A stretch of 64,000 nt of DNA from Deltaproteobacteria bacterium. Its GTDB lineage: Bacteria; Desulfobacterota; Desulfobaccia; Desulfobaccales; 0-14-0-80-60-11. The notes under the pieces are model-generated. The model saw only the letters and a program-made list of their open reading frames with translations. It was not told the DNA's origin and did not search any database. Position numbers and translations under genes: made by a program. This document shows positions 7,354 to 21,225 of this stretch, piece by piece (the first letter of the stretch is position 1; every line of letters starts with the position of its first letter). The stretch lies in assembly GCA_016875015.1 (NCBI GenBank), contig VGSJ01000001.1:12889-76888 (forward strand). The letters run 5' to 3'.

Positions 7354-8151
7354 ATGATCGGCGTGTTTGATTCGGGCTTCGGCGGGCTGGTGGTCTTGCG
7401 GGAGTTTTTGCAGGTCCTGCCGGATTATGACTACCTCTACCTGGGGGACAATGCCCGGATTCCTTACGGCACCCGGTCCGACCAGGTGGTGATCCGCTTC
7501 ACCGAGCAGGCGGTGGATTATCTCTTCCGCCAGGGCTGCCGGCTCATCATCCTGGCCTGTCACACCGCCTCGGCCCGGGCCTTGCGGCGCATCCAGCAGG
7601 TCTGGCTGCCGGCCCGCTACCCCGGCCTTCGGGTCCTGGGGGTGCTGATCCCCACGGTGGAAGAGGCCGTGGCCCGGACCCGGGTGAAGCGCATCGGGGT
7701 CATCGCTACCGAGGGCACCGTGATCTCCCAGTCTTTCGATCTGGAGCTGAAAAAACTCGACCCCGAGGTTGCGGTCGTCCAGCAGGCCTGTCCGCTCCTG
7801 GTGCCCATCATCGAGAGCGGGGAGCAGGAGTGGGAAGGCGCCACCCTGATCCTGCGCCGCTATCTGGCCCCCTTCCAGGGCGTGGACACCCTGATCCTGG
7901 GCTGCACCCACTATTCCATCTTGAAAGACCAGATCAGGGCCATCCTGGGCCCCGGCCACGATCTGATCTGCTCCGGCCAGGTCACCGCGGCCAAGCTGGC
8001 GGATTACCTCAATCGCCATCCCGAGATGGAGAGCCGCTTAAGCCGGGGCGGGACCCGCCGTTACCTCACCACCGACCTGACGCCGCGCTTTCAGCAGTTG
8101 GCCAGCCTGTTCATGGGTCATCCCCTGATCTCCGAACTGGTGGAGTTGTGA
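7354..8151 (+). CDS. murI: Glutamate racemase
   Basis: The conserved N-terminus MIGVFDSGFGGL starts at ATG 7354. ILACHTAS and LGCTHY carry the two catalytic Cys. The track ORF (7003) is an upstream read-through extension overlapping the permease gene. Confidence 0.93.
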   Translation: MIGVFDSGFGGLVVLREFLQVLPDYDYLYLGDNARIPYGTRSDQVVIRFTEQAVDYLFRQGCRLIILACHTASARALRRIQQVWLPARYPGLRVLGVLIPTVEEAVARTRVKRIGVIATEGTVISQSFDLELKKLDPEVAVVQQACPLLVPIIESGEQEWEGATLILRRYLAPFQGVDTLILGCTHYSILKDQIRAILGPGHDLICSGQVTAAKLADYLNRHPEMESRLSRGGTRRYLTTDLTPRFQQLASLFMGHPLISELVEL

Positions 8152-8241
8152 AGCAGCGGCCAGTGGTCAGTTGCCAGTTAAGAAAACTCCTTCTGCATTC
8201 AAACTCAGAATCCTGGCTATCCACGAAACCAAGTACGCCTT

Positions 8242-8378
8242 ATACCAAGTTGCGCTCATAGAAGTAAGAAAAGCTGTTGTCGGGGCGCACCTGCGTGTGC
8301 GCCCTCTTGTGGGCGGACACATGGGTCCGCCCCTACACAAGAAAAAGGTAAATTACCTGTATGATCGCAACTTGGTAT
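8242..8378 (-). mobile_element. MITE-like element, family A copy 1 (137 bp; terminal inverted repeats ATACCAAGTTGCG...CGCAACTTGGTAT; two internal GC hairpins)
   Basis: Termini are inverted repeats of each other. Internal hairpins lie at 8283-8304 and 8311-8332. The reverse complement aligns along its length with the 8832-8969 copy. Confidence 0.7.
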
Positions 8379-8701
8379 CACGGGTTCCCCGTCTCCTCAG
8401 GCGTTGGCGCTTCGGGTTCGGGTTCGGGCTCAGGCTGGGGAAGAGGCTCCACTACCTCCGGAGCGGGCGGGGTAGCGATTGGCCCTCTGGAAGAGCCAGA
8501 AGGAATTCCGGCCCGATTCTCAACGCCCGGCTTTTTCTCATCAGGGGTCTTATCCGGTAAGTTATTGGTGATGTGCACAGTTCCCTGACTGTCAGTAAAC
8601 CGTTGAATCTTTCCGTAGGCCGTCGAAGACGCACAGATCCACAATCCCAAAGTAAGCATGAAAAATTTTATCAGGACAGGCAACCTGCGCTCTTTCCGCA
8701 A
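8378..8701 (-). CDS. Small secreted protein, DUF4124-like N-terminal domain with a Pro/Glu-rich tail
   Basis: 107 aa from a TTG start (internal ATG 14 codons in). Signal peptide ...LGLWICASSTAYG, then KIQRFTDSQGTVHITNNLP (the DUF4124 pattern), then a PEPEPEPE tail. The stop abuts the end of MITE copy A1. Confidence 0.6.
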   Translation of the reverse strand: MRKERRLPVLIKFFMLTLGLWICASSTAYGKIQRFTDSQGTVHITNNLPDKTPDEKKPGVENRAGIPSGSSRGPIATPPAPEVVEPLPQPEPEPEPEAPTPEETGNP

Positions 8702-8780
8702 ACCTAATCAGCAGCCCGCGAACCGGCCCCGGCGGCTTCTTGGACATAACATTACCGTTAAACAGCCCTCTATTGCAAGT

Positions 8781-9076
8781 ATGATGACCTCGTAAAAAGT
8801 CTTTTTCCCCTCCCCTGGTGGGAGGGGATTAATACCAAACTGCGATCATACAGGTAATTTATCTTTTGTAGGGGCGGACCCATGTGTCCGCCCCTCAGGT
8901 TGGGCGCACACGCGGGTGCGCCCCTACAAACCGTGAGTTTTTCTTACCTCTATGCGCGCAACTTCGTATAAGGGGAGGGGGAAGATAACTCATCGAAGAT
9001 ATTAATTGTTTCACCCCCACCCTGACCCTCGCCCATCAAGGGGGAGGGAATTTTGGACTTTTTACGAAACCATCAT
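8781..9076. mobile_element. MITE-like element, family B copy 1 (TIR ATGATGnnyTCGTAAAAAGTC), carrying a nested family A element
   Basis: The left end ATGATGACCTCGTAAAAAGTC (8781-) matches the reverse complement of the right end GACTTTTTACGAAACCATCAT (-9076). It contains CCCCTCCC/GGGAGGGG hairpins (e.g. 8807-8827) and encloses family A copy 2. Confidence 0.6.
8832..8969 (+). mobile_element. MITE-like element, family A copy 2 (138 bp), inverted relative to copy 1 and nested in family B element
   Basis: ATACCAAACTGCGATCATACAGGTAATTTA...GTAGGGGCGGACCCATGTGTCCGCCCC...GGGCGCACACGCGGGTGCGCCCC...CGCGCAACTTCGTAT. Near-identical blocks with the reverse complement of 8242-8378. Confidence 0.7.
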
Positions 9077-9169
9077 GGATGACTTGTTCTTTACGGCCTG
9101 GAAAAAACCGGAGAATTTTGCGGTTATTAATTCCCGCGCTCTGCCCAGCCCGGTTAGGGGGGACTAATC

Positions 9170-10882
9170 TCATGGGGTCGTATTCACCAAAATACTACTC
9201 ACGCCGCTGAGGATGGCATCAGCCACTAGGGAGGCGTCCATCTGGGGAGGAGTAAATTTGTCGAACCGGTTCAGAGCGATGAAGATGGTGCGCCCCGAGT
9301 CGGGATAATACAGCCAGCGTGTGAGAACGCCCGGGTTTTCGCCGCCGTGACCGTACATTTTCTCCCCAAACCAGGGGTCCGAGTCGAAAACCTCCAGTCC
9401 GAAGCCGAAGGTGGAGGGGGCTTTAGGGGTAGTCATCTGCGAAAGAGACTGGGCGTTCACCACCTTGCCCCCGAAGAGGGCCCGGGCCCAGGTAAGCATA
9501 TCTTGGGCGGTGCTCACCCCGGACCCGGAGGTCCAGTCCCAGGAGAGATCCCAACCGGAGGTGTCCACGAGCTGAGAGGTGTCCACGAGGGTGGGGTAAT
9601 AATCGACGTCGATCCAACAATAGTCCCGGGTATAAGGACCGGTTTTCTGGCCGCTTCTGGTGAGGGCGGTGCGGGACATCTCCCGGGGGCTGAAGAACCG
9701 GGTCCGGATGGCATCCTCTAAGGGTTCATCGGTGGCAGCTTCGGCAATCTTCCCCAGGAGATAGTAACCGGCGTTGCAATACTCAAATGCCGTGCCCGGG
9801 AGGAAAGCGGAGTTGTAAATCCAATATATGACTTCATCATAAGAAGAATCTGAAGGCCAGGCATAGTAAGGATCCGACAGCATAAGGTCAGTGAAAAATG
9901 GGTCACCCACATAGTCATAGAGACCGCTGGTGTGGTTCAGGAGCATGGCCACGGTGATCTGAGCACGGAAGGGCACGGTTCCAGGCGCTAGAAGGGCCGG
10001 CAGCCATTTTTCCACGGTATCGGACAGGGCGATTTTGTTCTCCTCCACCAGCTTCATAATGAGCGCCGCCGTGAAGACCTTGGTGACCCCGGCGAGGCGG
10101 ACCTGCATGTCCGGCGTCATGGGCACGTTGGCGTCCAAATCGGCCTTGCCGGCCGCGCCGATCCACACGCCGTCTTTGGTCTGCACGGCCAGGATCGCTC
10201 CCGGGACTCCGGCATCGCTCACCTGCGCGTCCAGGAGGGCCTGGAGTTGGGCGGTCGGAAGGGAAGGAGGGGTGATTGGCGTTTGGTTTTCCCCTTGATT
10301 TATCGGGAGGGGAGTCGGAATCGTGGTGCTTCTAAACCCCGATGGTGCACCGCCCCCAAGGATTCCCCCAACATTCGCCGGCGAGTTGGAGGGAAAACCA
10401 CCAACTGCCATGCCCTCTCCACTTCCCGAGGCGCCTCTGGCTTCTCCACTTTTCATGGACCCGGTCACACTCTGGGGCTCGCCAGTATCCCCGGCCCGGT
10501 TAGCGCCTTTCCCTTTTTTGGTTTTGGCGGTTTTGGCCTCTACGTCATCATCGGTCTCTTTAGACGCAGGTTCCTCAGCCTCTTTAGGCGCAACGTTCTC
10601 AGCAGGTGTTTGGTCCCCGCTGACTGGCGCGCTGGCGGTAAATCTACTTCCTTCGGTACTGCGAGGGACTTGAATCTCCCCTTTCTTTCCCACGGTAACT
10701 TGATCCCCTTTGGCATCCTTCGGGGCCGTTCTTATGATAATCACCTGCTCCGCGGGTTCTTGTGGAGAAGAGGTTTGTCCCTTTTCAGGAACAGGAGCCT
10801 TCCCCGGCATACTTCCGGTGTAAGCCGGCAGGGCCAGGATTAAACCCAAAATTATGGGAAAAAACTTTTTTATCATCTTCAA
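9170..10882 (-). CDS. Secreted beta-lactamase/PBP-fold (serine hydrolase family) protein with a long low-complexity N-terminal linker; nucleophile Ser replaced by Gly
   Basis: 570 aa with a signal peptide MKMIKKFFPIILGLILALPA. The C-terminal ~350 aa carry class-C-like motifs: [S]xxK appears as AGVTK, YxN as YCN, and a GHGG box. The Gly codon GGG is the reverse complement of 10088-10090. Confidence 0.75.
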   Translation of the reverse strand: MKMIKKFFPIILGLILALPAYTGSMPGKAPVPEKGQTSSPQEPAEQVIIIRTAPKDAKGDQVTVGKKGEIQVPRSTEGSRFTASAPVSGDQTPAENVAPKEAEEPASKETDDDVEAKTAKTKKGKGANRAGDTGEPQSVTGSMKSGEARGASGSGEGMAVGGFPSNSPANVGGILGGGAPSGFRSTTIPTPLPINQGENQTPITPPSLPTAQLQALLDAQVSDAGVPGAILAVQTKDGVWIGAAGKADLDANVPMTPDMQVRLAGVTKVFTAALIMKLVEENKIALSDTVEKWLPALLAPGTVPFRAQITVAMLLNHTSGLYDYVGDPFFTDLMLSDPYYAWPSDSSYDEVIYWIYNSAFLPGTAFEYCNAGYYLLGKIAEAATDEPLEDAIRTRFFSPREMSRTALTRSGQKTGPYTRDYCWIDVDYYPTLVDTSQLVDTSGWDLSWDWTSGSGVSTAQDMLTWARALFGGKVVNAQSLSQMTTPKAPSTFGFGLEVFDSDPWFGEKMYGHGGENPGVLTRWLYYPDSGRTIFIALNRFDKFTPPQMDASLVADAILSGVSSILVNTTP

Positions 10883-10929
10883 TCAGTAAACAAGGGCGTA
10901 TGCCGCCCCGGCTTTCCCCAGGCTCACCC

Positions 10930-11427
10930 TTACCGAGCGGTGCTGGCCGGCTTCGGGTTGATTATTTCCTGGGAAATCTCCACGTACATCGCTCCACCCC
11001 GATAAGTGGACTTAATGGCCAACTTCTTGGAGAAGGAGCCTGCGGTCACCATTAAGAAACTCTCTCCCTCTTTGACCACAGTGAGCTTTACTCTATGGCC
11101 CGAACGAGGCGCAACTCTCACCATGGTGGGGTCGCTGGAGTACCACGTCGGGCTTAGGTCATACTCGACCCTAAAAACATCCAGACCAACGGCCCGGGCA
11201 TAGCCCACATAGTACTTCCCGTTTTGGATATCGGTAAATTTGGCGGGTGACACCCATACTTCACCCATGAAAAAATTTTCCTTGGTTATGCTCTGGACTT
11301 TAAGCTCTACCTTAAGGGCGGTTATTGTCACCCCGGCGTCAGGGCTTTTACCCCATGCCGGGCCCATGGGCAGGGCCAGAAGCAACCCTAACCCGATAAC
11401 TATCCACCACCAGCGCTTTGCGACCAT
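10930..11427 (-). CDS. Secreted hypothetical protein, possible Ig-like (Big_2-type) fold
   Basis: 165 aa with a signal peptide ...LLLALPMGPAWG. WYSSDPTMVRVAPRSGHRVKLTVVKEGESFLMVTAG resembles the Big_2 consensus. Confidence 0.6.
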   Translation of the reverse strand: MVAKRWWWIVIGLGLLLALPMGPAWGKSPDAGVTITALKVELKVQSITKENFFMGEVWVSPAKFTDIQNGKYYVGYARAVGLDVFRVEYDLSPTWYSSDPTMVRVAPRSGHRVKLTVVKEGESFLMVTAGSFSKKLAIKSTYRGGAMYVEISQEIINPKPASTAR

Positions 11428-11561
11428 AACTATGTCCCTCTATTCGAGTATGCGAAATTTTTCGGCATCCTATCGATGCCTGCGTCAAGCTTGGCCTTTG
11501 AGACTCTTTTTCACGCTTGACCCCCTGAACCGTTCCTCGCAGCCAAGGCCTCGCCAGTGAC

Positions 11562-13649
11562 TTAAGGAGTAAACTGATTCGCGTTGAGAAAGGGTTGCAG
11601 CGGCGGCAGCGGCGGCGATTCGCCCGAGCGGCCGTCCCGGCCCACCGCCGGGACCTTGAAAGTGATCTCCACGCCGGTCTTCGTGGTCCCGTGAGGCACA
11701 ATCAGCTCGGGGTGATCAAAGGGACGAGATTCGTTTCTCACCCGGTTGTCGGTCAACGCCATCAGAAAGGACACCAGATCATTTTTATCCAATGGCTGCC
11801 CAATAAGCCGGCCGATGGGAGCTATCAAGGGGTCCAGGTCCGCCAGATTATTTTCATCAAAGTTGCCGCCCCGGGTATAAAAGTCCACCACCTGACGCAA
11901 GGTCGCCATGCCGCCATTGTGCATAAAGGGGCCGGTGAGTTCCACATTGCGGAGCTGGGGTACCTTAAAGGCCCCATGGTTGCCGTTCCGGTCCGGCGGT
12001 TGCGTGTTGCCGATGGGCAAGGGCGGGATAAAACCGGCAACATAGCTGGCCTGCGCCCCGGTCGGTGGACTGTTATAGCTTGGCGGTATCAGGCCATCCC
12101 TCAACAACATGCCGAGGCGGCTATAATCCAGGGGAAACTCAGCGCCGGTTAACGGGTTGATAAACGGTGCGGTCGCAAACCGGCCCAGGTCGTTTTGAGT
12201 CGGCACCACGCCGATATTATTCCACCCGTTATCATAAAAGGCTATCAGGCGGTCGGCGGTGTTCATTATTTCAACGGCTGCCGCGGGCGGCAGAAACAGG
12301 GGAGGAAATCTGGCCAGGGCGGCGCCATTGACTATTGGTTCGGCGGCCTGAGTACTGATCGGGAGAACGTGGCAGCCGGTGCAACCCACCGCCTGGAAAA
12401 GCGCCAGGCCGCGCTGCTGCGGTGGGGTCAGATTGGCGGCGCCTCCCAGGAAGAGGTCGAAGGGGGATTCGCCGGAAATCAGGGTCGCCTGATAAAGCTG
12501 CACCGCCAGACCGAAAAAGAGGGAGAAGTTGGCCTCCATCTGGGTGAACTGATTGGTGTTGCCCGGAGTGGCCGGCCCGGCAACCACTTTAAGGCCGAGG
12601 TCTGGGTTGGCCGGATTGACAAACTCAAGATGCTGGGTGGTATTATTCCAATACTGGGGTTGAAACGCCGCCTGGATCATGGCGCTATACGTGGTGTTCA
12701 GACCTTTAATCAAGGTAATCACGTCACCGATCTTCGTGGACTTGGCCAGGGGAGATTCCAGCACGCTGTCCCGGGGATGCACCGCCTGTTTGGCCAGGGG
12801 CGGCAGGCTGAGCATCTTTTTGCCGAGCTTGGGCCAGGTGCGCCCCCGGAAAGACATTTCCAAGTCGCTGAGGGGCGGTCCCACCGCCTGGGAGGCCAGG
12901 GAGGCGTTTTCCAGCCGGACCCTGGCCGGAGTGAGTCCCGTGCCTTTATCCTCGAAGACCCTGGCGTTAGCATCCGCCGGGCCAAAGGGATTGACGCCGT
13001 TAAAGATGTTGTTGGCCCGCCCATCCCAGAAATTGGCAAAATTAAAGGCCGCGTTGATGACCGTGGGGGTATTGCGGGGCTCCACCCGCCGGACGTTGAC
13101 TCTATGACCCCTGAGGTTAAGGTTCCAGATGGGGTCGATCAGGGGAGTGCTGATATCCACCGCGCTCCCTAACTTGATGTCCACAAACTGAGCCAATCTA
13201 ACCCCCTGGGAAGAAGCGACGTCGTGATTGAACGGCCGCGCCAGGGGGGCATCAGTATCGGGATCGACGGGCTTAAAAAAGGGAAAGCTAGCCTGGGTCA
13301 AGGTGGAGTTCGGACCGTGAGGGGGGCTAAAAGTAGTGGAGCCCCCTAAAATATCCGGATTCATCTGGTTGCGGAACCGGTTGTCGGCGCCGGCATGGAA
13401 GTGACAGCTGGCGCAGGCCGTCATGCCGTCGCTGCCCACCTGCATGTCCCAGAAGAGGGCCTTGCCCAATTGGATGGCGGCGTTTTTGTCGAATACATAG
13501 CTGGCAAGAAAAACCGGTTCTGGAACCGTAAACGCGCTCAGCGGTTGGGCCCAGCCGGTTCCCCCGAGCAGCGCCAGGCTAAGGGCGATGGCCAGTAACC
13601 CGAAGACTTGCCTTATCATCAACTTTTTCTTGACCCTTTTTTTCGGCAT
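11562..13649 (-). CDS. Di-haem cytochrome c peroxidase family protein (CCP/MauG-like), secreted
   Basis: 695 aa with a signal peptide. Two CxxCH motifs (CASCHFH, CTGCHV). FWDGRANN and FKVPQLRNVELTGPFMHNGGMATLRQVVDFY are typical of the CCP/MauG family. Confidence 0.88.
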   Translation of the reverse strand: MPKKRVKKKLMIRQVFGLLAIALSLALLGGTGWAQPLSAFTVPEPVFLASYVFDKNAAIQLGKALFWDMQVGSDGMTACASCHFHAGADNRFRNQMNPDILGGSTTFSPPHGPNSTLTQASFPFFKPVDPDTDAPLARPFNHDVASSQGVRLAQFVDIKLGSAVDISTPLIDPIWNLNLRGHRVNVRRVEPRNTPTVINAAFNFANFWDGRANNIFNGVNPFGPADANARVFEDKGTGLTPARVRLENASLASQAVGPPLSDLEMSFRGRTWPKLGKKMLSLPPLAKQAVHPRDSVLESPLAKSTKIGDVITLIKGLNTTYSAMIQAAFQPQYWNNTTQHLEFVNPANPDLGLKVVAGPATPGNTNQFTQMEANFSLFFGLAVQLYQATLISGESPFDLFLGGAANLTPPQQRGLALFQAVGCTGCHVLPISTQAAEPIVNGAALARFPPLFLPPAAAVEIMNTADRLIAFYDNGWNNIGVVPTQNDLGRFATAPFINPLTGAEFPLDYSRLGMLLRDGLIPPSYNSPPTGAQASYVAGFIPPLPIGNTQPPDRNGNHGAFKVPQLRNVELTGPFMHNGGMATLRQVVDFYTRGGNFDENNLADLDPLIAPIGRLIGQPLDKNDLVSFLMALTDNRVRNESRPFDHPELIVPHGTTKTGVEITFKVPAVGRDGRSGESPPLPPLQPFLNANQFTP

Positions 13650-13696
13650 GGGAAGTTCCTCATCCTTAATATTTGGGATAAAAATCTCTCATCGGC

Positions 13697-14929
13697 TCAA
13701 TCATCCAACAGTAACAGCGGCAAATACGGCAGACCGGCGCGCCTCTCCGCTTTAATATTATCTATGGCCAGCCGGCCTATAATGGTGGGGGGCGGAAAAG
13801 TGGCCGCCGCGTTATGGATGACCCGCAACTCGCCGGCGTTGGTTAAAGCCGCCGGCACGCTCCCCCGCGCGGCGGTAAGGTCGCCTGGACTGATGGGGAA
13901 TACCGCGGTAACCCAATCACCCCCGGCAGGCAGAGACAACCCCTTCGTTGACACCGCAATATTGAGCGGCGGCAGACTGCCCACCGCCACATCGCCGATC
14001 ACGACCCGCACCTGAAGGCCGTTGGGACCGGTATTTTTCAGCGACATGGTAATGAAATTCACGCCCGCGGCCAGGTAATTTCCTGACCATTGGGCGTTGC
14101 GATTAACGACGGATAGCCTGCTCCCGGGACCCACGGCGCCGTCGATGGCGGTAACTTGCATAAAGGCGTCGCCAACGCCGCCGGGGCCGCCGCCGGGAAT
14201 AATTTCCGGGGGAAACGGCGGCTCAATGCCGCCTAAGCCGGCATCCCAGTTCTGCAGCGTGCCGTATTGGAAGGTATCGATCCAGCCGACAGTCACCGCG
14301 GCAGCGGCTTTAACATTGTCCACGCCTAGTTGACCCACAGCCGAGGGGGGGGGGAAGGTCGGGTTCGGGTTGTGCATGATCCGCAACTCACCGGCATTGG
14401 TTAAGGCCGGCAGCACATTCCCCCGGGCCGCAACCATCCGGCTGGGAGTGATGTTGAAGGTCGCGGCAACCCACCCGCCGCCGGCCGGCAGAACCACCGA
14501 GTCCCTGGACACCGCCATATTGAGCGGCGGCAGACTGCCCACCGCCACATCGCCGATCATGACCCGCACCACCAGGTCAGTGGCCCCCGTGTTTTTCAGG
14601 GACATGGTAATGACGTTCACGCCCCCGGCCAGGTAATTCCCTGACCACTGCAAGTCCCGGTTTATGACGTTTATTCTGCTCCCCGGATTTGGCAGTCCCC
14701 CGATCCCGGTGATTTGCATATAGCGGTCGCCGACGCCCCCGGGGCCGCCATCTGGAATCACCACCGGGGGAAAGGGAGGCTCGATACCGCCCAGCCCCGC
14801 ATCCCAGTTCTGCAGCGTCCCGTCTTGGAATGTATCGATCTGGCCGAGAACCACCGCGGACCCCACGGTCGGTTGCAGAAGGACGGCCGCCAGCAGCAGG
14901 GTTCCCAGAAGCCACCTCAATACCTTCAC
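13697..14929 (-). CDS. Secreted protein made of two ~186-aa tandem repeats; unknown function; C-terminal PYLPLLLLDD tail
   Basis: 410 aa with a signal peptide. Repeat 1 (~14309-14851) and repeat 2 (~13751-14293) share long identical blocks (IDTFQxGTLQNWDAGLGGIEPPFPP, QWSGNYLAxGVN, IGDVAVGSLPPLN, LTNAGELR). The repeat is also visible at DNA level. Confidence 0.8.
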   Translation of the reverse strand: MKVLRWLLGTLLLAAVLLQPTVGSAVVLGQIDTFQDGTLQNWDAGLGGIEPPFPPVVIPDGGPGGVGDRYMQITGIGGLPNPGSRINVINRDLQWSGNYLAGGVNVITMSLKNTGATDLVVRVMIGDVAVGSLPPLNMAVSRDSVVLPAGGGWVAATFNITPSRMVAARGNVLPALTNAGELRIMHNPNPTFPPPSAVGQLGVDNVKAAAAVTVGWIDTFQYGTLQNWDAGLGGIEPPFPPEIIPGGGPGGVGDAFMQVTAIDGAVGPGSRLSVVNRNAQWSGNYLAAGVNFITMSLKNTGPNGLQVRVVIGDVAVGSLPPLNIAVSTKGLSLPAGGDWVTAVFPISPGDLTAARGSVPAALTNAGELRVIHNAAATFPPPTIIGRLAIDNIKAERRAGLPYLPLLLLDD

Positions 14930-15037
14930 TCGGATAATCCCCCTTAAACCCCTAGTTGGGCGTCATCCCAACCCCAACCCGGCGCACATCCCCGGGGGCC
15001 GCGGCGGCGGTGCTGCCGCCGCGCCCCGGGGGCGGGC

Positions 15038-16339
15038 TTAATTAATCACAAAGGGTATCCGGGCGGTCTTCACAATCCGCTCCCGGCCGGGGACATTCTC
15101 CCCCCGGGTATCAAAGAACTCCACCGTGGCGAAGGCGTTGACCGCGGTGTCCGTCCTGATCAGGGCGTCAATGCGCCGGGCCACGCTGTAACGAATGGGA
15201 GTCCCGGCCGGCACCCTATAGGCGTGGCTGTACCGGGCCAAAGGCGGCACCCCCAGGGCCCGGCCGTCCCAGGCAATGATCACCACGTCCACCGGGAAGG
15301 TGACCCGCATGGAGTTGTAGGAGGCGCAGAGGGCGCGGACCAGGATGGTCTTGCCCCTCTGGGCGTTGACGGACACCTGCATCCCGGTAACCCCGCCGTT
15401 GAGACCCGGGGGAACGACCACGTTAGGCGGGATGGTCCCCAGGACCCCAGGGGCGTTGGGCACCACCACACCGGTGATAAACCAGTTATCCGGGTTGAAG
15501 TCATGGAAGTGCCCGTGCCAGAACTGGTCGTCCACCCCGGGCCGGTTGAGGATGGCGGGATACCAGGCCCTGGCCTCCAGCCCGATCTGGTTGTGCCAGT
15601 AGGAGTCCATGTCATCACAGACCCAGAGGGCCTCATAATCATAGGGGACGGTATAGGCGTGGGGGTCCCCGCTGGCCAGGTCGCCGGCCACGAACCCCGG
15701 GAACTGGGGAAACGCCGCCAGGCTGGCCGCGGTGCGGCGCGGGTAGCCGCCGGCGGTGAGAGGGTTAGCATAGGCGTCGGGCGGCTCGATGATGAGGAAG
15801 CCGAAGAGTCCCATCTCAAAGTGCTGCACCGTGTTGCGGTGGCAGTGGTAGAAGTAGCTGCCGATGAAGTTGGGCTGCAACTGGTAGGTGTATTTCCCGA
15901 TTTCCATGGAGGTATGCCCCACCCCGTCGTTCATGGGAGTAGGCTCGATGCCGTGCCAGTGAATGGTATGGGGCGGCGACGTCTTGCCCTGGGTCTCAGC
16001 ATGGAAGATCACCCCCCGGGGCACCCGGAGGATAGTTCCCGGATAGGTGCCGCCTTTGGAGGCGTCCATGTCTTGGTCCCCGACGGCCATGATAACGAGG
16101 GGCGCCCCATTCCAACCGGTAATGGTGATGCCCTCAGTCAACGCCAACTGCACTGTGTTAGGAACTTTCACATCGCCTAAGCCAAGGGACTCCATAAATG
16201 CCGGCACGGGATTGGTGGGGGTCAGCAACTCAGGGGTGCCGGGGCTTTCCTTGGGCGGGTCCCACATCTTGGCCCACATGCCTTCCATGCCGGCAATGGA
16301 CCGGCGGGGTATGATAATACCGGAATTTGGCAGCGCCAT
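15038..16339 (-). CDS. Multicopper-oxidase-like protein without signal peptide (carries the domain-1-type HxHG and HxH copper motifs)
   Basis: 433 aa. HTIHWHG (H127/H129) and GSYFYHCHRNTVQHFEMGLFGFLIIEP (H165-C166-H167) match MCO motifs 1 and 2. A good SD (AAGGAGAG) precedes the ATG. The N-terminus is not signal-like. Confidence 0.8.
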   Translation of the reverse strand: MALPNSGIIIPRRSIAGMEGMWAKMWDPPKESPGTPELLTPTNPVPAFMESLGLGDVKVPNTVQLALTEGITITGWNGAPLVIMAVGDQDMDASKGGTYPGTILRVPRGVIFHAETQGKTSPPHTIHWHGIEPTPMNDGVGHTSMEIGKYTYQLQPNFIGSYFYHCHRNTVQHFEMGLFGFLIIEPPDAYANPLTAGGYPRRTAASLAAFPQFPGFVAGDLASGDPHAYTVPYDYEALWVCDDMDSYWHNQIGLEARAWYPAILNRPGVDDQFWHGHFHDFNPDNWFITGVVVPNAPGVLGTIPPNVVVPPGLNGGVTGMQVSVNAQRGKTILVRALCASYNSMRVTFPVDVVIIAWDGRALGVPPLARYSHAYRVPAGTPIRYSVARRIDALIRTDTAVNAFATVEFFDTRGENVPGRERIVKTARIPFVIN

Positions 16340-16415
16340 CTTATCTCTCCTTATCTCCTGTTCATCAAGTAATCCAGAGAACTAGGCTTATGGTCCCGAT
16401 CCTGATCTCAGGGGA

Positions 16416-17945
16416 TCAGACCAGGGGGGGGTCGTTGCCTCCCCCCGGCTTGGTCACCGGGGCGCCGTTCCCAAAGGTCAGCATCATGTCAAAATCTTCA
16501 TCCCGGGGAAAATCCTTCCAGCCGGGCGTGTTCCGGTCGCCGATAATAGTTATCCCCGAAATCGAGCCGCAGTTGTAGTTGCCGCCCTGGGCCGTCTGGG
16601 ACGGCTCCGTATGGTCGTGCATGGCGTAGACCAGGGGCGACTGCCGCTGGTGGATATCCACGTTTACCAACGGGTTGAGGAAACTTTGTTTGAAGGTGCC
16701 GGTCGCGGGCTGATACATGGCAAACTCTTGCTGGGGGGGCCAGGTGGCGCCGAGGCCGGCCGGAAGGCCCGGGTCCGCCCGGCCGATGCCCCGGGTATTG
16801 GGGACATCCGGGGGCCGCATGAAGGGAATCACCATGTCGTAAATGTCCATGGATTTCGAGGTGAAGGTGTCCACCCAGAGAAGGTTGGATTGGACCCGCC
16901 CGTTGACGCAGGCGATGAAAAAGTGATTGCCGTGCAGATGCATGGAATGGGTCCACAACCCGGCGTTCATGACCCGGGCCAGGCACGGCTCCCCCACCCG
17001 GAGCATGGGGGTGATGGCCGGATGATTGTGGCTGAAATGCCCGGATTGCCCGCAGATGGTGAAGAAATGCGGCTTCTTGTTGAAGGCGTTGTTGATGGCA
17101 ATCCCCGGGCCAAAGGGGAGGGGAAACGCCATCCTCGGATCGGTGTTGGTGGCGATGAGAGGAGGTAAGCCGGGCCTGTCAGTTTCCCCGATAAAGGCGT
17201 CCATGAACGCGGCCGCGGGGTAATCTGCGCCGGGCGTAAAGTTCCCCACCTCCTCAAAGAGCACGGGGCTGGCCTGGTGGAGCAGCCAGACGTACTGCCG
17301 GAAAGGCAGGGTGGGCGGGGTGGCCGCGGCATCCCCCTGTTCCCAGGCCAGGCCGGGCCACCAGGCGGCCCGGCCGAAATCGTTGAACAGTTGCTGGACA
17401 TTGGGCGTGGGCAAGCTGTAAGGGGTCAACCGATTACCCCCCCGGGCGCGGGTGCCGCGCAGGTTGGCGGGCATGACGATGAAGGCGCCGTGCAGCCCCA
17501 TGACCCGGTTCACCGGGGCATTCAGGTTGTCGTAGTAGAGATAGCTGCCCGCTCGGGTGACTCGAAAAGTTCCGGTCACGGTGGCCCCCGGCGCAATGGG
17601 ACCGCTGTTGTACATGCCCGGGATGAAAAAAGCGTGGTCTTCATCCAGGTCATTGGTGATACTGATGTTGATGGTATCGCCCACGGTGGTATAGATTTGC
17701 GGCCCGGGGCAATCCGCCGGGAAATTCGGGGCGTTCGATTTATAGATCCAGAAGTAACAGGTAGCCAGGTTGTTCCCCGGTTCATGCGTCACCATCTCTT
17801 TGACGGCATCGGTAATGGTGAAATTCAGGGTCTGGGTCTGGACTGCGGCGTAGGCCGGGTTGGCCATGAGCCACGGCATCTTGCTGCCCACCACCAGGGT
17901 GGCCAGACCGCTTACGCCGTATTTAATAAAATCACGCCGTTTCAT
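16416..17945 (-). CDS. Tat-exported multicopper-oxidase-like protein (carries the domain-3-type HxxHxH and an HDH variant of HCH)
   Basis: 509 aa. Twin-arginine signal MKRRDFIKYGVSGLATLVVG...AYA. WTHSMHLHGNHFF (H333/H336/H338) and YAMHDHTEP (H443-D444-H445, Asp where the T1 Cys is expected). The N-terminal cupredoxin domain has lost its motif 1/2 histidines (DHAFFIPG, YLYYDN). Confidence 0.8.
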   Translation of the reverse strand: MKRRDFIKYGVSGLATLVVGSKMPWLMANPAYAAVQTQTLNFTITDAVKEMVTHEPGNNLATCYFWIYKSNAPNFPADCPGPQIYTTVGDTINISITNDLDEDHAFFIPGMYNSGPIAPGATVTGTFRVTRAGSYLYYDNLNAPVNRVMGLHGAFIVMPANLRGTRARGGNRLTPYSLPTPNVQQLFNDFGRAAWWPGLAWEQGDAAATPPTLPFRQYVWLLHQASPVLFEEVGNFTPGADYPAAAFMDAFIGETDRPGLPPLIATNTDPRMAFPLPFGPGIAINNAFNKKPHFFTICGQSGHFSHNHPAITPMLRVGEPCLARVMNAGLWTHSMHLHGNHFFIACVNGRVQSNLLWVDTFTSKSMDIYDMVIPFMRPPDVPNTRGIGRADPGLPAGLGATWPPQQEFAMYQPATGTFKQSFLNPLVNVDIHQRQSPLVYAMHDHTEPSQTAQGGNYNCGSISGITIIGDRNTPGWKDFPRDEDFDMMLTFGNGAPVTKPGGGNDPPLV

Positions 17946-18068
17946 TGAACATCCTCCTTATAAATGGCTCCTGCCAAGAACCGGCCGACATCCGCCGCAC
18001 TCCGCTATCCTTATTTTGAGAAATTGATCCTGCAACCTGAGATAATTTTAATCGTCTTCCGTTCATTA

Positions 18069-18094
18069 GAAAATAGGTAAAAATGCCTATTTTC
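18069..18094. promoter_or_regulatory. Perfect 9-bp inverted repeat GAAAATAGG-N8-CCTATTTTC in the divergent intergenic region
   Basis: Read directly. It lies between the divergently transcribed genes starting at 17945 (-) and 18214 (+). It is a candidate operator; no binding protein can be assigned. Confidence 0.3.
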
Positions 18095-18213
18095 AAACCC
18101 GCGGGGCTTGGTTATATTCTTTGCAAAACAGCGGAGAGTTTTGGAAGAGATCGACCGTTAGAACCAGTAGGCACTGATAAAGACCGGCTTCAATCATTAA
18201 AGGAGAACTGCCC

Positions 18214-18780
18214 ATGCCCAGGTTGAGATCCAACCCATTTCTGTTCACCTCTCTTCTGGTGGCGGCCCTGGCGCTTTTCAGCGCCTCGACGCTGCTGGCC
18301 CAGCCCATGTCGAACCCTGAGGCCAAGCCCCCCAGGACCATGACCTGGGTTCTGACCAATGGTACGGTGATTGCCCCCGAGCAGATAAAAACTGACGGCA
18401 ATCTCACCACCGGCTATGTGGTGGAAGCCACGGCCGCGGCCCAAGGCCGGGCTCGCGTCCTCGCCGGCAAGTTCACCATTAAATGTACGATCGAAAACAA
18501 AGGGGGAGGACAGTTCCTGCTCCGGGGCGCCTGGGACATAACCCGGGAAGGTGCACCGCAGACGACCCGCCGCACCCCCGACTCCATCAAGGGGACCCTC
18601 GTGGCGAATCTCGACTTCAACCCCGCGGCTTCCATCAATCAAGCTGCCGGGGCCGGACCCATCAACGGCAATGTTCTCGTCAATCCTAAGCGGCGCCATG
18701 CGGGTAAGGAAGTCAAGGCCAAGGGAACCTTCAAGGGTGACGAAAAATTTAATGGAACCATTTTCCTCTCAAGAAACTGA
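18214..18780 (+). CDS. Secreted hypothetical protein
   Basis: 188 aa. SD AAAGGAG precedes the ATG. Signal peptide ...LALFSASTLLAQP. No recognisable domain. Confidence 0.7.
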   Translation: MPRLRSNPFLFTSLLVAALALFSASTLLAQPMSNPEAKPPRTMTWVLTNGTVIAPEQIKTDGNLTTGYVVEATAAAQGRARVLAGKFTIKCTIENKGGGQFLLRGAWDITREGAPQTTRRTPDSIKGTLVANLDFNPAASINQAAGAGPINGNVLVNPKRRHAGKEVKAKGTFKGDEKFNGTIFLSRN

Positions 18781-18930: not shown

Positions 18931-21225
18931 ATGAGGGCCCGTAAGCGTTTATTTTCAAAGTTCATAGTCGCGGTGCTGACGTTGTTGGGGAGCGTCGCGT
19001 TGGTCGCAGGCCCGATATGGGCATCCGCCCCGTCAGTTGCGCCGGCAGCAGGGCCGAGTTCCTTATCCAAGGCCCAGGTGGCGGAGGGTTACGGGCGACT
19101 TCCCCTATTTTTCACCGAAAACCAGGGGCAGGTTGACTCACGAGTGAAGTTTTATGCCCGGGGCCAAGGTCATGCCGTCTTCTTTACTTCCGAAAGCATG
19201 GCCCTGAGCCTGAGCCGGGCTTCCGACGATGCCAAGAGAAGGGGCGAAAAGAAAGGTAAAGCCAAAGGTGACCAGGCGTTGGTGCAATTGCGCCCCCAGG
19301 GAATGCGCCCCGGAGTGGAAATCCTGGCCACCGAACCCTTGCCGGGCAAGGTTAACTATTACCAGGGGAATGATCCCGGGAAATGGCGCACCGAGGTGCC
19401 CACCTATAAGTCGGTGCTGTACCGGGAGGCCTACCCGGGCATCGACCTGAAATTTTACGGTGCCGGCCAGCAGGTGGAGTACGACCTCATTATTAAACCC
19501 GGGGCGGATCCAAAACAGGTTAAGTTCCTCTACCAGGGGATCAAGGCCCTGAAAATCACGAAGGGCGGCGAGCTGACCATCACCTTGCCCGGCGGCGGCC
19601 ACCTGGTCCAGCAGAAACCCGTGATCTACCAGGAAATCAACGGCCAGCGGGTCAGCCGGGAGGGGAAATTCCGGTTGCTGCCCGATAAGCGCGGTTATGG
19701 CTTTGATCTGGCCTCTTATGACACCCGCTATCCGCTGATCATTGATCCGGTGATCCTGGTCTATTCCACTTACCTGGGAGGCAACACCTGGGAATCAGGC
19801 AACGCCATTGCGGTGGACGCCTCCGGCAGCGCTTATGTGGCGGGCACCACCCAATCCGTGAACTTCCCCACCACCGTTGGTGTCGCTCAGACGGTTTTCG
19901 GCGGGGTGGAGGATGCCTTTGTCACTAAATTCAACCCCGCCGGCAACGCCCTGGTTTTCTCCACCTACCTGGGGGGCGCGGATGACGATATCGGCTTAGG
20001 TATTGCCGTGGACAGCACCGGCGCTGCCTATGTGGCGGGCGAGACCTTCTCCGCCAACTTTCCCCTGTCGGTGGCCCCGGCCCCGCTCCAAGCCGCCTTA
20101 GCGGGAACTAACAGCGCCTTTATGACCAAACTCAGCCCCACCGGGACCCTGGCCTACTCCACTTATCTGGGGGGGAGCGCGAGTGCTGCCGGGCCCGGCA
20201 CGGGTTCGACTATCGGCAAGGTCATTGCCATAGATGGCGCCGGGATTGCTTACCTAGCCGGGGATGCCAGCTCCACCAACTTCCCCCTGGCGGGCGCCTC
20301 CGTCCAGACCACGCTTAATGGAAGCGTCAACGCCTTTGTCGCCAAGATTAACCCCGCCATCTCAGGCCCGGGTGGCCTGGTATACTCCACCTACCTGGGA
20401 GGCGCGGTGTCCGAGGCGGCGTGGGGGATCGCGGTGAATACCGCCGGCACCGCCATTTATGTGGCCGGCGAGACCCAATCCGGTGACTTCCCCATCTCGG
20501 TGGCCCCGTTCCAGGCCACGAATAAGGGGTTCACCAACGCCTTTGTCACCCGGATTGACCCCAGCGTTGGAGGCCTGGCAGGCCTGGTGTACTCCACCTA
20601 CCTGGGAGGCTCCACGGTTATCCTTACCGGTTTGGGCGGCGACGATGCCGCTACCGGGGGCATTGCCGTGGATGCCGCCGGGAACGCCTACGTGGCCGGG
20701 AACACCGATTCCCTTGACTTCCCCATCACCCCGGGCGTCTTCCAGACTACCTTGAAAGGCGCCAGCAATGCCTTTGTCACCAAGTTCGATCCCACCGGGA
20801 CCCCGGTATATTCTACTTACCTGGGCGGCAACGGCAGTGATCTCGCCTGGTTTATTGCGGTGGACGCTTTAGGCAATGCTTATGTCACGGGCGAGACCAG
20901 TTCCGCTAATTTCCCCCTCTTAGGTCCTCTCCAGAAGACCCTCACGGGGGCGCCCAATGCCTTTGTAACCAAACTCAATGCCGGGGGGACCGGCCTCCTC
21001 TACTCCACTTATCTGGGTGGAACTGCGACCGACTTTGGCTTCGGCATCGCAGTGGATTCTTCCTCGCGCGCCTATGTGGCGGGTTTCACCACCTCCACCA
21101 ACTTCCCCACCAAGAATCCTTTTCAGGCTGCCCCGGCTCTAACTGCCACGGGGGCCGCCTTTGTTGCGAAGCTGCAATCGGGCACTATAACGCCGATCTA
21201 TGAAGTGCTCCTTCTGGATGAATGA
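18931..21225 (+). CDS. Secreted SBBP (beta-propeller) repeat protein; C-terminal PIYEVLLLDE tail
   Basis: 764 aa. SD GGAGG, signal peptide. About 9 repeats of the form YSTYLGG...D.G.GIAVD..G.AYV.G.T.S.NFP....Q... NAFVTK, which is the SBBP repeat pattern. Confidence 0.88.
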   Translation: MRARKRLFSKFIVAVLTLLGSVALVAGPIWASAPSVAPAAGPSSLSKAQVAEGYGRLPLFFTENQGQVDSRVKFYARGQGHAVFFTSESMALSLSRASDDAKRRGEKKGKAKGDQALVQLRPQGMRPGVEILATEPLPGKVNYYQGNDPGKWRTEVPTYKSVLYREAYPGIDLKFYGAGQQVEYDLIIKPGADPKQVKFLYQGIKALKITKGGELTITLPGGGHLVQQKPVIYQEINGQRVSREGKFRLLPDKRGYGFDLASYDTRYPLIIDPVILVYSTYLGGNTWESGNAIAVDASGSAYVAGTTQSVNFPTTVGVAQTVFGGVEDAFVTKFNPAGNALVFSTYLGGADDDIGLGIAVDSTGAAYVAGETFSANFPLSVAPAPLQAALAGTNSAFMTKLSPTGTLAYSTYLGGSASAAGPGTGSTIGKVIAIDGAGIAYLAGDASSTNFPLAGASVQTTLNGSVNAFVAKINPAISGPGGLVYSTYLGGAVSEAAWGIAVNTAGTAIYVAGETQSGDFPISVAPFQATNKGFTNAFVTRIDPSVGGLAGLVYSTYLGGSTVILTGLGGDDAATGGIAVDAAGNAYVAGNTDSLDFPITPGVFQTTLKGASNAFVTKFDPTGTPVYSTYLGGNGSDLAWFIAVDALGNAYVTGETSSANFPLLGPLQKTLTGAPNAFVTKLNAGGTGLLYSTYLGGTATDFGFGIAVDSSSRAYVAGFTTSTNFPTKNPFQAAPALTATGAAFVAKLQSGTITPIYEVLLLDE

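Follow-up and report, generated by a model that had tools for sequence, protein, structure and literature searches.

Trinuclear-cluster half-sites of a putative multicopper oxidase on two adjacent genes, one of them with a Tat signal

Two adjacent cupredoxin genes and their copper ligands

We analysed a 64,000-nucleotide (nt) stretch of contig VGSJ01000001.1 from a Deltaproteobacteria bacterium (referred to as the window; all coordinates are positions in this whole stretch), in which two neighbouring open reading frames (ORFs) on the minus strand, here named A and B, carry complementary ligand motifs of a multicopper oxidase (MCO). An earlier reading of the locus made from its letters alone (the sequence-only reading) had taken the pair for a split enzyme with one twin-arginine translocation (Tat) signal, and both ORFs lie where it had placed them:

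16416..17945, minus strand: gene A, an ORF of 509 amino acids encoding the Tat-signal subunit, with two cupredoxin domains
15038..16339, minus strand: gene B, an ORF of 433 amino acids without a signal peptide, with two cupredoxin domains

The ORFs are separated by a 76-nt spacer, and a good to strong Shine-Dalgarno sequence precedes each of them. We give next to no weight to the explanation that they are one fused gene broken in the assembly by a frameshift or nonsense error: although fused homologues occur in a related clade, the spacer holds a ribosome-binding site of its own, and the same two-gene structure, with a conserved first Met of B, recurs in 75 genomes and in three further contigs from this organism. 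A promoter and terminator scan of 11000..18400 returned sites no more numerous than in shuffled sequence and is silent on whether the genes form an operon.

Both proteins belong to the MCO superfamily by profile and by fold. They exceed the Pfam Cu-oxidase_3 cutoff of 21 bits (A with 41.7 bits, B with 46.1). No NCBIfam model reaches its cutoff for A or B, indicating that the family is not curated, and existing annotation of its members is merely "multicopper oxidase domain-containing protein". The best sequence and fold matches of both proteins are type-C two-domain MCOs, namely mgLAC (2ZWN, metagenomic) and the Nitrosomonas europaea blue copper oxidase (3G5W). When residues 96-190 of B were compared with PDB sequences, domain 1 of 2ZWN and of 3G5W ranked first (profile E-value about 3e-15), while the A profile aligned to both domains of 2ZWN and A domain 2 also to domain 2 of 3G5W. 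AlphaFold2 (AF2) monomer models reached a mean predicted local distance difference test (pLDDT) score of 81 for B and 68 for A. In Foldseek searches, 3G5W and 2ZWN were the best matches of both models, with about 355-380 columns aligned at E-values of 1e-15 to 3e-16 (about 1e-16 for A) and a target-normalised template modelling score of about 0.6, and the top matches were all MCOs; A and B are therefore both two-cupredoxin-domain proteins. Alignment of the A family to the B family with hhalign (probability 89%, E-value 2e-6, 239 columns) covered both domains and the linker, and at this level of sequence comparison the two families are paralogues throughout that length. Three strongly conserved segments were modelled with pLDDT below 50, namely B 1-29, B 133-147 and A 379-465, the last including an HDH motif described below. 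Such a pattern is only suggestive, as far as the models go, of regions that become ordered solely with a partner or a metal.

The canonical MCO motifs are HxHG, HxH and HxxHxH, together with HCHxxxHxxxxM/L/F, with M, L or F at the axial position (PMC7036934). Two-domain MCOs are trimers in which each trinuclear cluster is made by residues of two protomers, and in type C the type-1 (T1) copper lies in the N-terminal domain (PMC13151041). The domains and motifs of A and B, with type-2 and type-3 copper abbreviated as T2 and T3, are as follows:

17466..17840, minus strand: A domain 1, a degenerate cupredoxin domain, from alignments to 2ZWN and 5ZL1
16506..17078, minus strand: A domain 2, a cupredoxin domain with one half of the cluster ligands, aligning to domain 2 of 2ZWN and 3G5W
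16929..16949, minus strand: HSMHLHG of A (H333, H336, H338), with H336 and H338 as predicted T2/T3 ligands
16611..16619, minus strand: HDH of A (H443, D444, H445), with both His as predicted T3 ligands and Asp at the place of the T1 Cys
15950..15970, minus strand: HTIHWHG of B, with H124 as predicted T1 ligand and H127 and H129 as predicted T2/T3 ligands
15806..15847, minus strand: HCHRNTVQHFEMGL of B, with H165 and H167 as predicted T3 ligands, C166 as T1 Cys, H173 as T1 His and L178 as axial residue
15926..15928, minus strand: Asp138 of B, nine residues past the second His of HWHG, invariant and a candidate second-sphere carboxylate
15041..15652, minus strand: B domain 2, a cupredoxin domain without copper ligands, from hhalign of B against A families, AF2 and Foldseek

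Conservation was read from 120 A and 120 B metagenome homologues and from 79 B and 78 A genome homologues. The residues that the sequence-only reading had picked out as ligands (A H333/H336/H338 and H443-D444-H445; B H127/H129 and H165-C166-H167) were all numbered correctly. When aligned to 2ZWN and 3G5W they occupy copper-ligand columns, in which the His and Cys residues are invariant across both sets of homologues. In A domain 1, DHAFFIPG stands in place of HxxHxHG and YLYYDN in place of YHCH (PHTIHWHG and LWYHCH in 2ZWN). These had been described as degenerate first and second motifs, and in domain 1 of two-domain MCOs the columns that they align with are indeed HxxHxHG and HCH. Where T1 ligands once stood, this domain has invariant His104, Asp139 and Asn146, with an invariant His152 nearby; together they may make a hydrogen-bond network with a structural role, or else another type of metal site.

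A domain 2 retains one half of a cluster. Its H336 and H338 are 100% conserved, in a motif that aligns with IHAMHSHG of 2ZWN domain 2. The two His of HDH are conserved in 121/121 and 76/78 sequences and the Asp between them in 93%. MHDH of A aligns with FHDH of 2ZWN domain 2, and judged from this alignment an Asp is what the second, copper-free domain of type-C two-domain MCOs normally has here. After HDH, Glu447 is invariant. We presume that B Asp138 and A Glu447 are the counterparts of CueO Asp112 (HWHG+9) and CueO Glu506, an analogy by which both residues are plausible second-sphere carboxylates.

The other half lies in B domain 1, where HTIHWHG is the same, column for column, as the PHTIHWHG of domain 1 of 2ZWN and 3G5W, and YHCH-x5-H aligns with YHCHVNVNEH...GM of the same two proteins. 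H124, H127 and H129 are 100% invariant in metagenome and genome homologues; H165, C166, H167 and H173 are invariant in the 120 metagenome and 79 genome homologues, and L178 is present in 78/79. In B domain 2, SYNSMRVTF aligns with LWTHSMHLH of A. The ligands of this domain, like those of A domain 1, are lost in every homologue examined. The eight His of one trinuclear cluster are thus B 127/129/165/167 and A 336/338/443/445, all invariant or nearly so, and the earlier proposal that they are split between the chains is borne out by alignment and conservation. Since the half-sites are on different chains, neither chain alone, whether as a monomer or as a homo-oligomer, can build a trinuclear cluster, and the only place for the O2-reducing cluster would be an interface that joins B domain 1 to A domain 2. 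No single polypeptide of the pair holds all four copper motifs: A has only HxxHxH and HDH, B only HxxHxH and HCH-x5-H-x4-L, and the full set is present only in A and B together or in the fused relatives P0276 and P0306 described below.

Where the sequence-only reading went astray was in stating that no canonical T1 site is present. T1 ligands in CueO and laccases are the first His of HxxHxH together with the Cys and the downstream His of HCH...H. B has exactly these in the columns of 2ZWN and 3G5W, but His124 and His173 (Cys166+7) had been overlooked; with Cys166 they make up a His-Cys-His set in type-C columns. The HCH of B had been regarded as a variant of WYHSH, but it is instead a T1 Cys flanked by two T3 His. 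This error arose because the domain was equated with the first domain of three-domain MCOs, which usually has WYHSH, rather than with a T1-bearing domain. We infer from the alignment that H124, C166 and H173 would form a complete T1 copper site, in which Leu178 (H173+5) would be axial and non-coordinating. An axial Leu probably makes the protein an oxidase of high potential, to judge from the residue itself. A heterodimeric O2-reducing protein that has a trinuclear cluster and no T1 copper, with electrons entering the cluster directly, is accordingly an extremely unlikely alternative. It draws on the Asp that replaces the T1 Cys in the HDH of A and on A domain 1, which keeps only His104 of the ligands. 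Against these points, His124, Cys166 and His173 of B sit in type-C T1 columns and are invariant in about 200 homologues, and HDH is also found in the copper-free domain 2 of 2ZWN, whose T1 site is in domain 1.

The ligand set also bears on whether the pair could be a heteromeric enzyme like copper nitrite reductase (NirK), with T1 copper and a mononuclear T2 copper at the subunit interface, which would not reduce O2. NirK has a T2 site with three His, and many NirK structures are found among the sequence matches; moreover, many hosts of the pair are anaerobes or respire nitrate or metals. However, the motifs are of MCO type, with paired HxH on both sides amounting to eight His rather than three, and the best matches in sequence and fold are two-domain oxidases, with NirK entries ranking lower. 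We consider a NirK-like enzyme very unlikely.

Conservation, export signals and natural fusions

One genome per GTDB species was scanned, which gave 508 loci encoding a relative of B in bacterial and archaeal genomes, and the best 80 of the 508 were fetched. Hosts include Neobacillus, Paenibacillus, Geomonas, Citrifermentans bremense, Minicystis rosea and Ca. Methanoperedens, as well as Nitrospirota, Chloroflexota, Rokubacteria, Actinomycetota and many metagenome-assembled genomes of Desulfobacterota. In 75 of these 80, the gene directly upstream of B, on the same strand, is A, mostly with a gap of 1-130 nt. Of the remaining five, the sequence breaks off within A in two (L016, L070) and just upstream of B in one (L047), and two lack an adjacent A (L041, L054). 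A survey of whether the two genes always co-occur had been called for, and co-occurrence is the rule without being universal, given the orphan B genes at L041 and L054. The genome with the orphan at L054, the copy that was inspected, has a complete A-B pair elsewhere (L033). The orphan B paralogue itself (Bacillus sp. JJ1562, 7974..11213) has an acidic His/Glu-rich insertion, EEHEEHEEHEENH, with CopC and CopD genes downstream.

The two proteins differ at their N-termini, where the following features were found:

17847..17945, minus strand: MKRRDFIKYGVSGLATLVVGSKMPWLMANPAYA, the Tat signal peptide of A, with cleavage predicted after AYA
16202..16339, minus strand: conserved N-terminal arm of B, consensus MSxxxPxxxIPRxSVxGxEGxWxKMFDPP...NPVP

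The N-terminus of A, MKRRDFIKYG...AYA|A, is a classic Tat signal with invariant R3 and R4, and all 75 A N-termini that are complete in the genomes carry a twin-arginine motif of the RR-x-F-[LIV]-K type. In the A homologues of L006, L008 and L011, the twin arginines are joined by a lipobox-like ...VGC and then a spacer rich in Gly, Ser and Asp; by their sequence, A subunits of this type are probably Tat-exported lipoproteins that would tether the complex to the membrane.

B begins with MALPNSGIIIPRRSIAGMEGMWAKMWDPP, which has no hydrophobic core or stretch. An upstream start that would give B a signal peptide of its own, named beforehand as fatal to the split-enzyme proposal, was looked for: 15 codons upstream of the B ATG there is an in-frame TAG with no start codon in between, and hence no such start exists. 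Nor did B in any of the 80 fetched loci have a signal peptide or an open upstream frame able to encode one, in keeping with the earlier statement that only A is provided with an export signal. The alignment reaches the conserved Met1 of B in most fetched loci, and the N-terminal arm is conserved from Met1 across the fetched genome loci L007-L086 with no hydrophobic extension upstream. N-terminal hydropathy in the window pair is 1.54 for A versus 0.83 for B; because the ranges overlap among homologues, this comparison is weak support. We also considered PRRS in the B N-terminus as a cryptic Tat motif and rejected it, as the residue at its second Arg is variable (R/W/Q/K/I) and there is no hydrophobic core after it. 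Residues 1-29 of the arm have pLDDT below 50 in the monomer model and are predicted to be disordered, and on the basis of the model the arm is a candidate contact with A.

At the far end, many B homologues have C-terminal domains that resemble CarboxypepD_reg or dockerin, which are typical of extracytoplasmic proteins. B homologues of 570-867 amino acids with CarboxypepD_reg-like repeats at the C-terminus were seen at L017, L019, L039, L046, L049, L055 and L057, among others; the B of L019 (Geomonas limicola) has a dockerin-like tail, and that of L049 has long repeats ending in poly-(GSGS).

An exhaustive profile search (162 clusters at 50% identity, E <= 1e-30) contained, among its more distant clusters, single chains holding both halves. 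P0306 (931 amino acids) matches A over residues 1-397, including the Tat signal MKRREFIKYG (E-value 2e-58), and B over residues 411-707 (E-value 9e-45). The A-then-B order is shared by P0276 (792 amino acids) and P0368, both halves being served by a single Tat signal, and P0276 is present on four contigs from two sources (NCBI, JGI). Fusions of this Rosetta-stone kind are strong evidence at the sequence level that A and B would act together, with both on one side of the membrane. P0276 keeps the K..PP and NP.P elements of the B arm as an internal linker; survival of the arm between the halves speaks for a structural part rather than a targeting signal. The A-like half of P0276 has HCH instead of HDH, and a second T1 site there was considered and judged unlikely because no His follows at +5 or +7. 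Fused A-B genes at L087 (5706..8501 and 12477..14501) and L088 (3745..8379) lie beside genes for Por_Secre_tail and PSCyt1 cytochrome c proteins, for a CHRD/Sod_Cu/cytochrome c protein and for a second fused MCO.

These results were weighed against the possibility that A and B are independent proteins, with A as an exported, largely copper-free protein like SufI/FtsP, B as a cytoplasmic cupredoxin, and their complementarity as coincidence. SufI is indeed among the structural matches of A, B lacks an export signal, and orphan B genes exist, if rarely. Yet neither chain has a full ligand set while the half-site His are all invariant, and the ligand loss of SufI/FtsP is not seen in either protein, since A keeps four cluster His and B keeps four plus the T1 ligands. 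With the adjacency in 75/80 loci, the natural fusions with one Tat signal and the extracellular-type domains fused to B, this alternative is very unlikely.

The proposed heteromer among multicopper oxidases

What the analysis shows directly are the sequences and folds of the two proteins, their paralogy, the conservation of ligand columns, the adjacency of the genes, the placing of the signals and the fusions; from these we infer the assembly, co-export, copper content and activity of the pair. We consider it likely that A and B are two subunits of an obligate heteromeric MCO that would be exported by Tat hitch-hiking. The sequence-only reading had anticipated a heteromeric, co-exported, O2-reducing copper protein, with which gene adjacency, the distribution of signals, the extracellular-type domains of B and the fusions all agree. 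Tat- and A-dependent co-export of B in particular would be favoured by the domains fused to B, by a tatA gene in a Bacillus operon of the pair (see below) and by the single-signal fusions. By their sequences, the two genes appear to be paralogues of a type-C two-domain MCO gene that was duplicated, after which the copies would have lost complementary ligands.

In the mechanism that we propose, A and B would associate in the cytoplasm, and the Tat system would export the complex on the twin-arginine signal of A, with B as the hitch-hiker. Chaperones of the SCO1/CopC type (also CopD and NosL), which are encoded nearby in many genomes, would then supply copper. Substrate would be oxidised one electron at a time at the T1 site of B, and the electrons would reach the cluster, at the interface of A and B, by way of the Cys166-His165/His167 bridge; there, O2 would be reduced to water, with B Asp138 and A Glu447 as likely proton relays. 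Our best guess for the substrate is a metal ion or a c-type cytochrome.

Several observations weigh against this interpretation. The copper ligands were read from alignments at 15-17% identity, so that slight mis-registration is possible outside the motifs, and the quality of the A model is modest, as its mean pLDDT shows. The orphan B copies have no adjacent A. Finally, the known two-domain MCOs are trimeric, and a ring of three made of two subunit types cannot be symmetric. The quaternary structure may therefore be either a heterodimer or some larger ring, and a part of the half-sites might go unpaired. The pair could, for instance, make an open heterodimer of four domains, with the insertions taking the place of the absent third subunit. 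The 410-amino-acid gene downstream of B was also considered as a third subunit that would bring the number of domains to six; it was rejected as a core part because its product matches no Pfam model and none of the other genomes has a homologue close to the pair.

Comparison with known systems places the proposed obligate heteromer close to, but outside, the type-C enzymes. A and B share with these the two cupredoxin domains; domain 1 of 2ZWN and 3G5W has HxxHxH and HCH-x5-H and domain 2 has HxxHxH and HDH. B has the type-C fold with T1 ligands in its N-terminal domain, and A has the two-domain fold without T1. In type-C enzymes, however, one chain holds both cluster halves and the homotrimer has three clusters, whereas neither A nor B has both. 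Moreover, A and B are about 130-170 amino acids longer (together about 300 over two classical subunits), and a signal peptide is found on A alone. In the case of E. coli CueO, a Tat-exported three-domain enzyme that is among the fold matches, A and B jointly have its four motifs, T1 site and Tat signal. CueO, in contrast, is a single chain of three domains with its cluster between domains 1 and 3, while the pair has four domains on two chains and a permuted order of motifs, the A half preceding the T1-bearing half. Ceruloplasmin, a six-domain MCO, comes from duplicated two-domain units in which most cluster sites degenerated and one trinuclear cluster is left. The A-B pair resembles it in having degenerated duplicated units, but ceruloplasmin is one eukaryotic chain, unlike the separate polypeptides or four-domain fusions (P0276, P0306) seen here.

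Bacillus MnxEFG consists of an MCO chain with accessory polypeptides. Small-subunit heteromers are likewise known for fungal laccases of the POXA3 type (PMC10443355). Like the A-B pair, these are MCOs that work with extra polypeptides, but their MCO chain has all T1 and cluster ligands, which here are divided. As for export, HybOC and DmsAB are Tat hitch-hiker complexes. Hitch-hiking is also known for E. coli PaoABC (PMC4273604). The gene layout of the pair is that of these systems, with a twin-arginine signal on one subunit and a signal-less partner encoded adjacent, which would cross the membrane with it once the two have assembled in the cytoplasm, although they are Mo, FeS and NiFe enzymes.

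The described MCO architectures have two, three or six domains (PMC7036934), and as judged from its sequence the A-B pair, whose fold and ligands make it a superfamily member, lies outside all of these. We therefore asked how far the pair can be seen as a fourth architectural class, an obligate A/B heteromer or four-domain fusion with one T1 site and one cluster at the hetero-interface. A little better than evenly probable, in our estimate, is this proposition taken as a whole, in which the class would also have arisen by duplication and complementary loss, would be widespread in bacteria and archaea with many hosts from anoxic habitats, would provide the first case of an MCO that leaves the cytoplasm by Tat hitch-hiking, and would be a living form of the intermediate postulated between two-domain trimers and asymmetric multi-domain MCOs. 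In the literature on heteromeric and two-domain MCOs, Tat hitch-hiking and Methanoperedens MCOs we found no such pair and no MCO reported as a Tat hitch-hiker, within a coverage that left out most subscription papers and in which absence is no proof. MCO classes rest on domain number and the place of T1, and surveys that seek four copper motifs in one chain miss the A-B family, which is invisible to them because its active site exists only across two gene products. If true, the proposed class would offer a natural system in which to study the way that the cluster between subunits of two-domain MCOs turned asymmetric, and a cuproenzyme would join the Tat hitch-hikers. It also points to an unexplored O2-reducing oxidase in organisms usually held to be anaerobic.

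Gene neighbourhood

The pair is often encoded beside copper chaperones and di-haem or c-type cytochromes. In the window, the haem protein is the following:

11562..13649, minus strand: MauG/MbnH-like di-haem protein of 695 amino acids downstream of the pair, with Pfam CCP_MauG at 4.7e-21 and the NCBIfam MbnH/MauG models below cutoff

A homologue of this protein was found within 8 kilobases of the pair in about 25 of the 80 loci, mostly downstream and on the same strand. These observations point to a facultative neighbour that would serve as electron partner or donor, or as a maturation (protein-modifying) enzyme. The loci with the di-haem protein include L011, L012, L046, L048, L050, L077 and L079, and it is far longer than MbnH or MauG. 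Genes for cytochrome c or CCP_MauG proteins also flank the fused A-B forms, and together the haem-protein neighbours point to a haem-protein partner of the pair.

Genes for CsoR, CopC, CopD, SCO1 and NosL flank the pair in various genomes, with SCO1/SenC following it in 13 loci and NosL nearby in another. The Bacillus operon referred to above, in Bacillus sp. UNC41MFS5 (L004, KK366017.1, 5803..15989), encodes a CsoR-like repressor, A, B, TatA, CopC, CopD and a multi-domain MCO of 1492 amino acids. Copper-homeostasis neighbours of this kind would fit a role as metallo-oxidase. The giant MCO of the operon is also found after the pair in several genomes of Neobacillus and Paenibacillus, with weaker matches in Methanoperedens.

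Two further genes lie on either side of the pair in the window. Downstream of B, the 410-amino-acid gene mentioned above (13697..14929, minus strand) encodes a secreted protein of two repeats that ends in GLPYLPLLLLDD. Upstream of A, a gene on the plus strand (18931..21225) encodes a protein of 764 amino acids with DUF7948 and an SBBP beta-propeller, which ends in ITPIYEVLLLDE. These two are the sole ORFs of at least 100 amino acids in the window that end in ...LLLD[DE], and the shared ending may be a short C-terminal sorting tag.

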